64,000 bases of DNA, taken from Escherichia coli. GTDB lineage: Bacteria > Pseudomonadota > Gammaproteobacteria > Enterobacterales > Enterobacteriaceae. Location: the NCBI RefSeq assembly GCF_003334385.1, contig NZ_QOWN01000003.1; one strand, written 5' to 3'. The position numbers and the translations under genes were made by a program. The stretch's first letter is position 1, and each line of letters starts with the position of its first letter. Of the stretch, positions 13,300 through 47,793 are shown in pieces. The notes under the pieces were generated by a model, which ran no database searches, was not told where the DNA came from, and saw only the letters and a program-made list of their open reading frames with translations.

Positions 13300-13436
13300 C
13301 GTGTAATGGCTGCATGAAATAAACAATAAAATATAAATAACATTATCAGCCTGCTGACGGCTTGAAGAGAGTCACAGTATCTTGTGCAACATTATTGGAA
13401 AGAGTGAGGGGCGAGGTAGCGAAGCGGAAAAATGTT

Positions 13437-13542
13437 AAAAAAAAGCCCATCGTGGGAGATGGGCAAAGACTACACACAGCAATTCGTTGTTTCACTCAGG
13501 GGATTTCCATGCTTATAAATCAATATGTTGATTTATAACCGT
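13437..13542 (-). ncRNA. rprA: RprA small regulatory RNA (RpoS translational activator)
   Basis: Reverse complement reads ACGGTTATAAATCAACATATTGATTTATAAGCATGGAAATCCCC...CCCATCTCCCACGATGGGC followed by a T-run (terminator hairpin); matches RprA as recalled, between ydiL and ydiK. Confidence 0.85.
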
Positions 13543-18980: not shown

Positions 18981-19149
18981 TCCTGACTTAATGCCGCAAG
19001 TTCGCCAAATCGACCTGGATTAACCTCCGTCCAGGTTCGATGACCTTCTTAATACTGCTTATCTACCGCCTGATATTGTTCAAAAATAATACTAATCGCA
19101 GTTTGTGTTAAAACGGCGGGTTAGCTTTATGAGATTATTCTTATCGCCC

Positions 19150-19246
19150 CTTCAAGAGCTAAGCCACTGAGAGTGCCGGAGATAAGCGCCGGATGGGGTA
19201 GAAACCCTTAAGCCTGTGTCGCACAGACTTAAGGGTTTTCTTATTT
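19150..19246 (+). ncRNA. putative small RNA or terminator structure in the ydiH-sufA spacer (position consistent with RydB)
   Basis: Long imperfect hairpin AAACCCTTAAG...CTTAAGGGTTT (19202-19238) followed by a T-rich tract on the plus strand, about 220 nt from the ydiH stop. The boundaries are approximate, and the strand is inferred only from the terminator. Confidence 0.3.
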
Positions 19247-36908: not shown

Positions 36909-37214
36909 TCAGGCGAGTTTTGCCTGATTGATTTGACTAAGTGGCTCATTGACATCGAAAACTTTGGCGACAACTTCCTCAACGCCGAGATTTTTCAGTC
37001 GGGCAGTATGTTTTTCCAGATAGGCAAGGGCGCTTTTTTCATCAGTGAAAAGGTAGATCCCACCGGCTTCGTGGTTCTTTTCACTTTCTGTCCATACCTT
37101 CCACAGAAAACCAGGTTCCTGATTAATCGACTCAGCAAGTGGTTTAAGCTGCTCAGCCATTGCGTCGCCAAATGGGCCATTAAAAGCAAAATGAAGTTGT
37201 AACAAAGTTGCCAT
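36909..37214 (-). CDS. ydhR: small putative monooxygenase-like protein
   Basis: 101-aa ORF next to the tRNA-Val pair. Confidence 0.75.
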
Positions 37215-37321
37215 AGCGATTCTCCTTCTGATAACGCATACGAAGACAGTGTAAATCTTTTAACGTATTGGATACAGAGAAGAAACAGAGGGAAAAAGGA
37301 GAAGACCAGATTAAGAAAATC

Positions 37322-37398
37322 TGGTGCGTCCGAGTGGACTCGAACCACCGACCCCCACCATGTCAAGGTGGTGCTCTAACCAACTGAGCTACGGACGC
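37322..37398 (-). tRNA. valW: tRNA-Val (GAC)
   Basis: Reverse complement reads GCGTCCGTAGCTCAGTTGGTTAGAGCACCACCTTGACATGGTGGGGGTCGGTGGTTCGAGTCCACTCGGACGCACCA: cloverleaf-compatible, GAC anticodon, 3' CCA. Confidence 0.93.
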
Positions 37399-37402
37399 AG
37401 GA

Positions 37403-37479
37403 TGGTGCGTTCAATTGGACTCGAACCAACGACCCCCACCATGTCAAGGTGGTGCTCTAACCAACTGAGCTATGAACGC
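37403..37479 (-). tRNA. valV: tRNA-Val (GAC)
   Basis: Reverse complement reads GCGTTCATAGCTCAGTTGGTTAGAGCACCACCTTGACATGGTGGGGGTCGTTGGTTCGAGTCCAATTGAACGCACCA; tandem copy 4 nt from valW. Confidence 0.93.
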
Positions 37480-45048: not shown

Positions 45049-46070
45049 CGACGATAGTCGCGGAACGGGCCGTCAGCCACGGAGCGGCGTTCAATCAAGC
45101 GCGGATGCACTTCAATAGACTGCGGTTCTTCACGTTTGTTGACGATACGATCCAACAGCATGTTGAACGCTGTTTCACCCAGCGAATCTTTTGGCTGATG
45201 GATCGTGGTCAGCGCCGGCGTAAAATAGCGCGCGTTGCGCACGTTATCATAACCGATCAGCGAAACATCCTGCGGGACGCGCAGGCCCATTTCATCAGCA
45301 GCACAAAGTGCGCCCATTGCCATGATATCGCCACCACAGAAGACGGCAGTAGGGCGATGCGGCTGCGACAGGATTTGCTGCATGGCGCGATAACCGGATT
45401 CAGGTTCAAAGTCACCCTGCACAATCCAGCTTTCCGGCACCTTGATCATCGCTTCTTCCATCGCCTTCATAAAACCGGCAAGGCGGCCTGCGCCGGTGTT
45501 ACGTTCCAGCGGGCCGGGGATGACGCCGATTTCGCGGTGACCGCGTTCAATCAGATAACGCCCGGCCATGTAGCCGCCTTCGAACGCGTTATCAATGACC
45601 GCATCGGTGAAGTCAGCTTTTGCTTCACCCCAGTCCATGACCACCATTGGGATATGGCGATACTCTTCCAGCATCGCCAGCAACGGCTCTGGGTACTCAG
45701 AACACATCACCAGCAGACCATCGACGCGTTTTTGCGCCATCATCGACAGATAAGCCCGCTGTTTCTCAAGATTGTTCCACGCATTGCCCAGAATCAGGGT
45801 GTAACCTTTCTGGAAGCAATTTTTTTCAACTGCTTCAATGATCTCGGCAAAATAGGCCGCTTCGCTGCTGGTCGCCAGCAAACCGATAGACTTGGTGTGG
45901 TTAACCTTCAGGCTACGCGCCACCGCGCTAGGGGAGTAGTGTAATTCTTTAATCGCTGCCCACACGGCGTTGCGCGTTTCTTCAGCGACGAAACGTGTTT
46001 TGTTGATCACGTGTGACACAGTTGTAGTGGAAACGTTTGCTCGTTTCGCTACATCTTTTATTGTTGCCAT
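45045..46070 (-). CDS. purR: purine repressor (LacI family)
   Basis: 341-aa ORF starting [36 protein letters not shown], recognised as PurR. Confidence 0.95.
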
Positions 46071-46114
46071 TCCATTTCACTCCAGACCCTAACTTCAGCT
46101 CCTGCAAAATCGCA

Positions 46115-46130
46115 AGGTAAACGTTTGCCT
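46115..46130. promoter_or_regulatory. PUR-box-like operator in the purR leader
   Basis: AGGTAAACGTTTGCCT matches the PurR operator consensus ACGCAAACGTTTGCGT at 13 of 16 positions, about 45-60 bp upstream of the purR start codon. Confidence 0.5.
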
Positions 46131-46368
46131 TTACACACCTTACGCACAACAAAAGTGTTGCGGTACGCCGGAAAAACGACACGGAGCGTCAGGAAGGGGT
46201 CAATGGCCAGTACGCAAATAGTGTAAGCGTGGAATTTTGGCCGATCTTGACGAAAAGGGGAAGTGGTAAAAACACTTATCATTATAAATGACGGGAGATT
46301 TTTTCATCACAGTGTGTAAAAATGCGTAATATCACTTTTTGTGTGGTAATAAAAAAGGAGAAAACTTG

Positions 46369-46458
46369 ATGAGCACCGACCTTAAATTTTCACTGGTAAC
46401 AACGATTATCGTCCTCGGTTTGATCGTAGCCGTGGGTTTGACTGCCGCGCTGCACTGA
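46369..46458 (+). CDS. ynhF: 29-aa single-TM small membrane protein
   Basis: Not in the ORF track. ATG at 46369 preceded by Shine-Dalgarno AAGGAG (46355-46360); encodes MSTDLKFSLVTTIIVLGLIVAVGLTAALH; a stem-loop follows the stop. Matches the small protein YnhF as recalled. Confidence 0.6.
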   Translation: MSTDLKFSLVTTIIVLGLIVAVGLTAALH

Positions 46459-46623
46459 TTTCCTCTCGAGGGAGCGCGTTCTCCCTCGCATCTCCTTCCT
46501 GTTTGTTAGCAAAATGGCAAAAGTGTTTTCTCTTTTTGTTATTTTCATTTTTTTGTGATTGCTGTCATGCTTTCGCCACTTTAATGAATATCGCGTAATG
46601 ACGCGAAGAGGTGGAGATAAGGC

Positions 46624-47793
46624 ATGAAAATTAACTATCCGTTGCTGGCGCTGGCGATTGGCGCGTTTGGTATCGGGACAACGGAGTTCTCGCCAATGGG
46701 CTTGTTGCCCGTCATTGCGCGCGGTGTGGATGTCTCGATTCCCGCTGCCGGAATGTTAATCAGTGCCTATGCAGTTGGCGTAATGGTTGGCGCGCCGCTG
46801 ATGACGCTTCTACTTTCTCATCGTGCCCGCCGCAGTGCGTTGATTTTCCTGATGGCAATTTTCACGCTCGGCAACGTACTTTCCGCCATCGCGCCGGATT
46901 ATATGACCCTGATGCTTTCACGCATTTTGACCAGCCTGAATCACGGAGCATTTTTTGGTTTGGGTTCAGTCGTGGCCGCAAGCGTGGTGCCAAAACATAA
47001 ACAGGCCAGCGCAGTTGCCACTATGTTTATGGGGTTAACCCTGGCAAATATCGGTGGCGTGCCGGCGGCGACCTGGTTGGGTGAAACCATCGGCTGGCGG
47101 ATGTCATTTCTGGCAACGGCGGGGCTGGGAGTGATTTCAATGGTAAGTCTGTTCTTCTCATTACCTAAAGGTGGTGCAGGGGCACGACCTGAAGTGAAAA
47201 AAGAGCTGGCGGTATTAATGCGTCCGCAGGTGCTGTCTGCATTGCTGACGACGGTACTGGGAGCTGGTGCAATGTTTACTCTCTACACCTATATCTCTCC
47301 GGTACTGCAAAGTATTACCCACGCAACACCGGTGTTCGTCACGGCAATGCTGGTGCTGATTGGTGTCGGATTCTCTATCGGTAACTATCTCGGCGGCAAA
47401 CTGGCAGATCGTTCAGTTAACGGCACGTTGAAAGGCTTTTTGTTGTTGTTGATGGTGATTATGCTGGCAATCCCGTTCCTGGCCCGCAATGAGTTCGGCG
47501 CAGCTATTAGCATGGTGGTGTGGGGCGCAGCAACCTTTGCGGTCGTACCGCCGTTACAGATGCGCGTGATGCGTGTCGCCAGTGAAGCGCCAGGTCTGTC
47601 TTCATCAGTCAATATTGGTGCCTTTAATCTTGGAAATGCGCTGGGAGCAGCTGCTGGTGGTGCGGTAATTTCCGCTGGGCTGGGATACAGCTTTGTGCCG
47701 GTGATGGGAGCGATTGTCGCGGGACTGGCATTATTGCTGGTGTTTATGTCAGCCAGAAAACAACCTGAAACAGTTTGCGTTGCTAACAGCTAA
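46624..47793 (+). CDS. ydhP: MFS transporter
   Basis: 389-aa polytopic ORF. Confidence 0.82.
   Translation: MKINYPLLALAIGAFGIGTTEFSPMGLLPVIARGVDVSIPAAGMLISAYAVGVMVGAPLMTLLLSHRARRSALIFLMAIFTLGNVLSAIAPDYMTLMLSRILTSLNHGAFFGLGSVVAASVVPKHKQASAVATMFMGLTLANIGGVPAATWLGETIGWRMSFLATAGLGVISMVSLFFSLPKGGAGARPEVKKELAVLMRPQVLSALLTTVLGAGAMFTLYTYISPVLQSITHATPVFVTAMLVLIGVGFSIGNYLGGKLADRSVNGTLKGFLLLLMVIMLAIPFLARNEFGAAISMVVWGAATFAVVPPLQMRVMRVASEAPGLSSSVNIGAFNLGNALGAAAGGAVISAGLGYSFVPVMGAIVAGLALLLVFMSARKQPETVCVANS

Follow-up and report, generated by a model that had tools for sequence, protein, structure and literature searches.

Does the spacer between purR and ydhP of Escherichia coli encode a protein, a regulatory RNA, or a reading frame that is open by chance alone? 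The question is raised by a run of 29 codons within a 64,000-nucleotide stretch of E. coli DNA (hereafter the window), for which a preliminary description made from the letters alone had proposed a micro-protein gene with a strong ribosome-binding site, a hydrophobic product resembling YnhF and a stem-loop just past the stop. The analysis presented below identifies this ORF as cydH (formerly ynhF, alias cydY) of E. coli, a gene already known.

The reading frame and its start site

Read directly from the sequence, the cydH coding region lies at 46369..46458 on the plus strand, opening with an ATG (46369-71) and closing, after 29 sense codons, with a TGA (46456-58), a delineation backed by the sequence itself, the family match, the RefSeq annotation and the conservation of the frame. 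The 29-residue product, MSTDLKFSLVTTIIVLGLIVAVGLTAALH, consists of one hydrophobic helix preceded by the short polar stretch MSTDLK at the N-terminus. The Shine-Dalgarno sequence AAGGAG is situated at 46355..46360 on the same strand, exactly 8 nt 5' of the ATG. Thus, the start, stop and frame of the 29-codon ORF between purR and ydhP, and the strength and spacing of its Shine-Dalgarno sequence, are as the preliminary description gave them. Its further claim of a single-helix hydrophobic membrane micro-protein also holds, the protein having been directly seen by cryo-EM and top-down mass spectrometry. The absence of the ORF from the first ORF track, which had made it appear unlisted, is solely an effect of the length cutoff; the standard annotation has cydH.

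A mechanical ORF list gives a 39-codon form of the same ORF, opening at a TTG at 46339. This start is rejected because the extension spans the Shine-Dalgarno sequence and because its in-frame open length is unstable among relatives, in which it ranges from 1 to 72 codons. Hence, the ATG at 46369 is the start of the gene and the extension is non-coding.

Identity and coding constraint of cydH

No observation speaks against the identity of the product. The peptide is identical at 29/29 positions (E 4.5e-13) to chain H of PDB entry 6RKO, which is titled 'Uncharacterized protein YnhF / cytochrome bd-I ubiquinol oxidase CydH', and its sequence occurs unchanged in 8 PDB entries. Further, it matches the NCBIfam equivalog NF033411 ('cytochrome bd-I oxidase subunit CydH') over profile positions 1-29 of 29 with 50.2 bits (E 1.7e-13; curated cutoff 30 bits), and RefSeq places a CDS at the ORF, cydH, with the product WP_000102278.1. 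These three lines of evidence confirm the match to YnhF that the preliminary description had proposed. A Pfam-A scan of 46363-46455 (the peptide padded to 31 residues) returned no family, the library used probably being older than PF28012 (YnhF), which precomputed tables assign to CydH homologs. Sequence, length, position between purR and ydhP, and annotation all agree with those of CydH/CydY (YnhF) of E. coli, with no difference that would set the two apart; they are the same gene. As cydH is annotated in RefSeq, has families in both NCBIfam and Pfam, and has solved structures of its product, it is not a new gene. Rather, it serves as a positive control, a genuine gene of 29 codons having been picked out by a sequence-only reading on the strength of its Shine-Dalgarno sequence, hydrophobic product and hairpin.

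Within the species, the 551-bp purR-ydhP spacer finds a match in 5,426/5,426 complete E. coli genomes, and in 5,422 of these 5,426 a single place covers at least 80% of it. For conservation beyond the species, one genome per species was scanned with the neighbouring PurR protein as the anchor, such that the sample is independent of the ORF. The 80 species loci recovered, from about 25 genera of Enterobacteriaceae, all carry a full-length cydH homolog (80/80), which is on the strand opposite to purR and about 298 bp upstream of it. The start is an ATG in 80/80 and the stop falls at codon 30 in 80/80 (TGA in 63, TAA in 17), and a GGAG-type Shine-Dalgarno sequence with the same spacing precedes nearly all of them. 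The check that the preliminary description had proposed, conservation of frame and ribosome-binding site across the family, hence comes out in favor of the gene, and the loss of frame that would have spoken against it is not seen.

Inspection of the alignment reveals the signature of a translated sequence. Translation of the 78 distinct coding sequences among the 80 loci gives 53 different proteins; codon positions 1, 2 and 3 have column entropies of 0.49, 0.29 and 1.30 bits, respectively, most of the variation thus falling on the third; and pN/pS amounts to 0.13 relative to E. coli and to 0.22 across all pairs, with pS at 0.6-0.7. Residues M1, L5, T11, T12, L16, I19, V20 and A26 are invariant across the 80 loci. 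A test for helical periodicity, as would accompany conservation of one face of the helix, was not significant (p = 0.21). The substitution pattern and the invariant residues show strong purifying selection on the CydH protein.

The hairpin and the 3' end of the transcript

Downstream of the coding region, a hairpin at 46467..46488 on the plus strand comprises the arms CGAGGGAG (46467-74) and CTCCCTCG (46481-88) and a 6-nt loop (CGCGTT). Its 8-bp stem begins 9 nt past the stop, with a folding energy of -13.1 kcal/mol. Folding within the 45 nt past the stop yields -12.6 kcal/mol or better in 80/80 loci, as compared with controls among which just 2/80 upstream windows and 26/80 mononucleotide shuffles reach -10 kcal/mol. 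In the alignment of the hairpin 92.4% of the cells are paired, versus 60-78% in slid controls, with the compensatory changes mostly in the outer pairs and an almost invariant inner GGGAG/CTCCC core. A scan scored no canonical intrinsic terminator at this hairpin: it has no U-tract, the tail reading CAUCUCCUUCC, and the 10 nt past the stem contain a mean of 3.55 T across the 80 loci.

The position of this hairpin may be compared to Term-seq data. In the table excerpts of Adams et al. 2021 (PMC7815308), a 'primary' 3' end of ynhF RNA is given at MG1655 coordinate 1737422 on the minus strand, with average read counts of 655,382 and 662,064 in its two rows, which are among the highest in those excerpts. 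The 61-nt context string given there is identical to window positions 46442-46502, and this places the 3' end at 46492 on the plus strand of the window, 4 nt beyond the stem. An abundant short cydH mRNA thus has its end set by this structure, and the stem-loop noted just past the stop in the preliminary description is not only present but also marks a mapped mRNA 3' end. On this reading, cydH is transcribed as a short, abundant, monocistronic mRNA ending 4 nt past the hairpin, and this mRNA is translated from the strong Shine-Dalgarno sequence.

With no U-tract behind the hairpin, this end might be generated by trimming back to a protective structure as opposed to intrinsic termination; either a non-canonical form of termination or exonucleolytic trimming of this kind could account for it. 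For the 5' part of the ynhF mRNA, trimming by RNase G has been reported. It was also considered whether AAGGAGA in the 5' untranslated region pairs with TCTCCTT (46491-97) in the 3' one; this idea was set aside, the complementarity being lost already in another E. coli strain (locus L002) and in E. whittamii.

The STnc550 family as the cydH mRNA

The same DNA is claimed by an RNA family. Rfam RF02081 ('STnc550') matches the window at 46071..46461 on the plus strand with 396.5 bits, exceeding its gathering threshold of 48 bits, over model positions 1-388 of 388. This match covers the entire purR-cydH spacer plus the cydH ORF, and its 3' boundary falls 3 nt past the stop, short of both the hairpin and the mapped 3' end. 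Sittka et al. 2008 put STnc550 forward as a candidate from Hfq co-IP, equating it with the intergenic region between purR and sodB in Salmonella; it was represented by 6 reads in the control versus 10 in the Hfq co-IP (1.7-fold), with the Northern recorded as 'nd' (not detected). The probe used for that Northern lies within the cydH ORF of Salmonella, antisense to the codons for LGVIV. The name STnc550 does not occur in the main texts of the literature searched.

The location of the probe inside the ORF, the span of the RF02081 match and the weak support for an sRNA together lead to the conclusion that the STnc550 'sRNA' family is the cydH mRNA. Specifically, RF02081 comprises the 5' spacer and coding region of this mRNA and is not a non-coding sRNA: its substitutions follow a protein-coding pattern, the protein exists, the Hfq enrichment is weak and the Northern gave 'nd'. 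Thus, the Rfam entry and cydH share the same DNA (46071-46461) and differ by the label 'enterobacterial sRNA', and matches to RF02081 (STnc550) are to be read as cydH mRNA.

Two RNA-level proposals need to be weighed against this backdrop. The first holds that the cydH transcript has a second function as an RNA, or that the hairpin without a U-tract is a specific element for stabilization or recognition of the 3' end. It draws on the untranslated blocks and the hairpin arms (GGGAG/CUCCC), which are conserved in sequence over about 25 genera, and we consider it highly improbable. The second would have the locus yield a regulatory small RNA (STnc550), with the ORF either incidental or part of a dual-function transcript. 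The full-length RF02081 match at 396.5 bits and the sequence-level conservation of the untranslated blocks and hairpin arms are compatible with such an RNA, as is the abundance of the transcript 3' end, which in the Term-seq excerpts equals that of well-known sRNAs. However, STnc550 has the standing of a candidate only, with its few reads, marginal enrichment and 'nd' Northern; its coordinates are those of a plain intergenic region; and its probe lies antisense to cydH codons. Moreover, the substitutions in the ORF are those of a coding sequence, the CydH protein is real and seated in an enzyme, and the proposed RNA has no known target. A regulatory small RNA is on these grounds highly improbable, and cydH as a protein-coding mRNA remains the preferred reading of the transcript.

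Conserved blocks in the flanking spacers

Within the purR-cydH spacer, the alignment reveals blocks that are invariant across genera at 46232-63, 46296-303, 46313-24 and 46332-39. The two nearest the gene, TGTGTAAAAATG (46313-24) and TCACTTTT (46332-39), consist of invariant alignment columns in the region 46313..46339 on the plus strand, 30-56 nt before the ATG, and to judge from the alignment might represent part of a promoter or of the 5' UTR. The more distal block at 46232..46263, GGAATTTTG.C.GATCTTGA.GAAAAGGGGAAG, lies in the spacer of the divergent purR/cydH pair without an assigned strand and could belong to the promoter of either gene. The blocks at 46232-63, 46296-303 and 46313-39 do not fit sigma-70, FNR or the other consensuses tried, and may serve either one of the divergent pair.

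Further, a scan for sigma-70-like promoters on the plus strand found none in 46000-46700, and a search for the FNR box (TTGAT-N4-ATCAA, at most 2 mismatches) gave as its sole nearby match one that overlaps the start codon, with the window-wide count being at chance. Given the lack of both a sigma-70 consensus and an FNR box, the reported low-oxygen induction of the gene is left without a sequence explanation at this locus. Candidates picked by eye fared no better. The -10-like sequences TAATAT (46327-32) and TAAAAAT (46317-23) were discarded, neither having a credible -35, and the former is also not conserved beyond the Escherichia, Citrobacter and Salmonella sequences. A CRP/FNR-like AAATG(A/C)-N6-TCAC at 46320-35 was likewise discarded, as its centre is 40.5 nt before the ATG, a position incompatible with an activator acting upstream of a transcript that carries the Shine-Dalgarno sequence.

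On the opposite strand of this spacer, the purR leader reaches at least to about 46188 (minus strand) in the excerpts of Adams et al. 2021 (PMC7815308). The same excerpts list two 'orphan' Term-seq 3' ends at MG1655 1737833 and 1737776 (plus strand), corresponding to about 46081 and about 46138 on the minus strand of the window, i.e., within the purR leader. Both lie near the PurR operator AGGCAAACGTTTACC (46117-31) and may represent premature termination or processing of the leader.

The spacer on the other side, between cydH and ydhP, contains several blocks at 46500-46575 that are conserved in about 25 genera, namely ATTGTTA, GCAAnAA-TCTTTTG and TTTTTTGTGATTG(A/C)TGTCATGCTTT. The last of these includes a CRP-like TGTGA-N6-TCATG at 46555-70, and the ATTGTTA block is retained in Salmonella, which is without ydhP. 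A promoter-like site on the minus strand, from 46568 to 46541 and directed antisense toward cydH, was also flagged by the scan.

Distribution, gene neighbourhoods and the relationship to ydhP

A search of 1.84 billion representative proteins with a CydH profile built from 53 proteins recovered just 93 clusters at E <= 0.001, which indicates that the family is narrow. Many of the matches are gene-calling artefacts, either extended or fused. For example, the database 'proteins' P0016, P0025, P0037, P0055 and P0082, which hold CydH, are N-terminally extended or are read-through C-terminal fusions (41-117 aa). Such entries illustrate how gene callers mishandle a 29-codon gene. Three divergent members of the family could be located in genomes (L083, L084 and L086), and 0/3 are found beside cydAB. 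In CP001655.1 the YnhF-family gene adjoins a LacI-family gene in the position of purR, the same arrangement as for cydH of Enterobacteriaceae, and in the assemblies GCA_921293875.1 and GCA_039544205.1 the genes occur in unrelated neighbourhoods. Likewise, the genes annotated over the span of the window run from fadK to slyB, and cyd genes are absent among them; cydH is thus an orphan relative to its partner operon, in agreement with the literature.

Downstream, in almost all loci of sufficient length, ydhP comes next on the same strand, about 161-184 nt away from cydH. The loci of Salmonella (L014) and of one Pluralibacter genome (L052) are without ydhP and retain cydH along with its hairpin. 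Additionally, in E. coli PCN061 (NZ_CP006636.1; positions 1019-1716 of locus L082) an inserted IS1A element separates ydhP from the cydH hairpin and leaves cydH intact. The ydhP-less loci and this insertion fit with cydH being an independent transcription unit.

The same association could be seen as pointing to a leader peptide, i.e., a cydH ORF upstream of the transporter gene ydhP whose translation controls the latter. Indeed, ydhP lies downstream on the same strand at a fairly constant distance, and the intervening spacer carries conserved blocks. However, the dominant RNA 3' end of the Term-seq excerpts falls between the two genes; cydH and its hairpin persist in Salmonella and in one Pluralibacter genome where there is no ydhP for them to control; an IS1 element separates the pair in PCN061; distant homologs of cydH occur in other neighbourhoods; and CydH is a stable enzyme subunit as opposed to a transient leader. 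Taken together, these observations make a leader peptide scarcely tenable. A chance intergenic ORF without a product, for which merely the small size and the absence from the first ORF track could be cited, has a negligible probability in the face of the identity to 6RKO, the NF033411 match, the frame kept in 80/80 loci, the pN/pS of 0.13-0.22 and the detection by top-down mass spectrometry.

CydH as a subunit of cytochrome bd-I oxidase

Where the preliminary description is outdated is in its assertion that the function of such a protein is largely unknown: since 2019 YnhF, under the names CydH and CydY, has been recognized as a fourth subunit in cytochrome bd-I. In their cryo-EM map of the E. 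coli enzyme, Thesseling et al. 2019 came upon a fourth subunit, made up of a single helix, that had not been expected; mass spectrometry showed this additional helix to be YnhF, for which they introduced the name CydY. According to their proposal, it obstructs the oxygen channel known from the Geobacillus enzyme. They also reported that YnhF is produced at low oxygen and that its formyl-methionine is retained. The name CydH is credited to Safarian et al. 2019 by reviews and later structures. In these, CydH sits in a cleft of CydA formed by TM1 and TM9 (helices 1 and 8 in one later paper) and shields heme b595 from the membrane, with O2 reaching heme d via a narrow channel from CydB; one review also has it blocking the putative O2 site. 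Further, CydH co-purifies with bd-I even though it is not carried on the expression plasmid, and top-down mass spectrometry has detected the intact formylated 29-residue protein with 100% coverage.

These observations, along with those on the gene and its transcript, can be brought together in a single account that we hold to be very probably correct as a whole, namely that the ORF is cydH, expressed from a short monocistronic mRNA, and that its product is a bd-I subunit docked on CydA and covering heme b595. In mechanistic terms, the peptide keeps its N-formyl-methionine and inserts into the inner membrane, where it docks in the cleft of CydA by TM helix 1, the other side being TM9 or TM8 depending on the paper. 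Its partner CydA is supplied by the distant cydABX operon, which encodes the long-Q-loop bd-I. Once docked, CydH covers the lipid-facing side of heme b595 and would plug the cavity through which oxygen enters the Geobacillus enzyme, oxygen then reaching heme d by a separate narrow hydrophobic channel starting in CydB. The identity of CydH and the coding constraint on it are established, as are its incorporation into the complex, its occurrence as an intact protein in cells and the 3' end of its RNA; from the structures we infer, in addition, that the covering of heme b595 alters ligand access or selectivity. Neither a cydH deletion phenotype nor a kinetic comparison was found in the accessible literature. 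Given that E. coli bd-II and mycobacterial bd oxidases function without a CydH-like subunit, the role of CydH may be modulatory rather than essential.

This subunit is also instructive when compared to the other small subunits of bd oxidases, CydX, CydS and AppX. Like CydH, they are shorter than 40 residues, possess one TM helix, bind CydA or AppC, and were overlooked by early annotation; however, they display no sequence similarity to it. CydX, in particular, is encoded within the cydABX operon, in contrast to the distant orphan locus of cydH. Its binding site, close to heme b558, is on the other side of CydA, and it is required for assembly or activity, whereas CydH is found beside heme b595. 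CydH, moreover, has been observed in bd-I only and not in bd-II.

Other features of the window

Beyond the cydH locus, the Rfam family HPnc0260 ('antisense RNA') matches 37198-37360 on the plus strand, opposite two tRNA matches at 37325-37479 on the minus strand that correspond to an annotated tRNA-Val pair. Hence, HPnc0260 looks like a family built on tRNA-antisense sequence and not an independent gene. The known sRNAs RprA and RydB were recovered as matches at the Rfam gathering threshold, at 13435-13542 on the minus strand and 19146-19206 on the plus strand, respectively.
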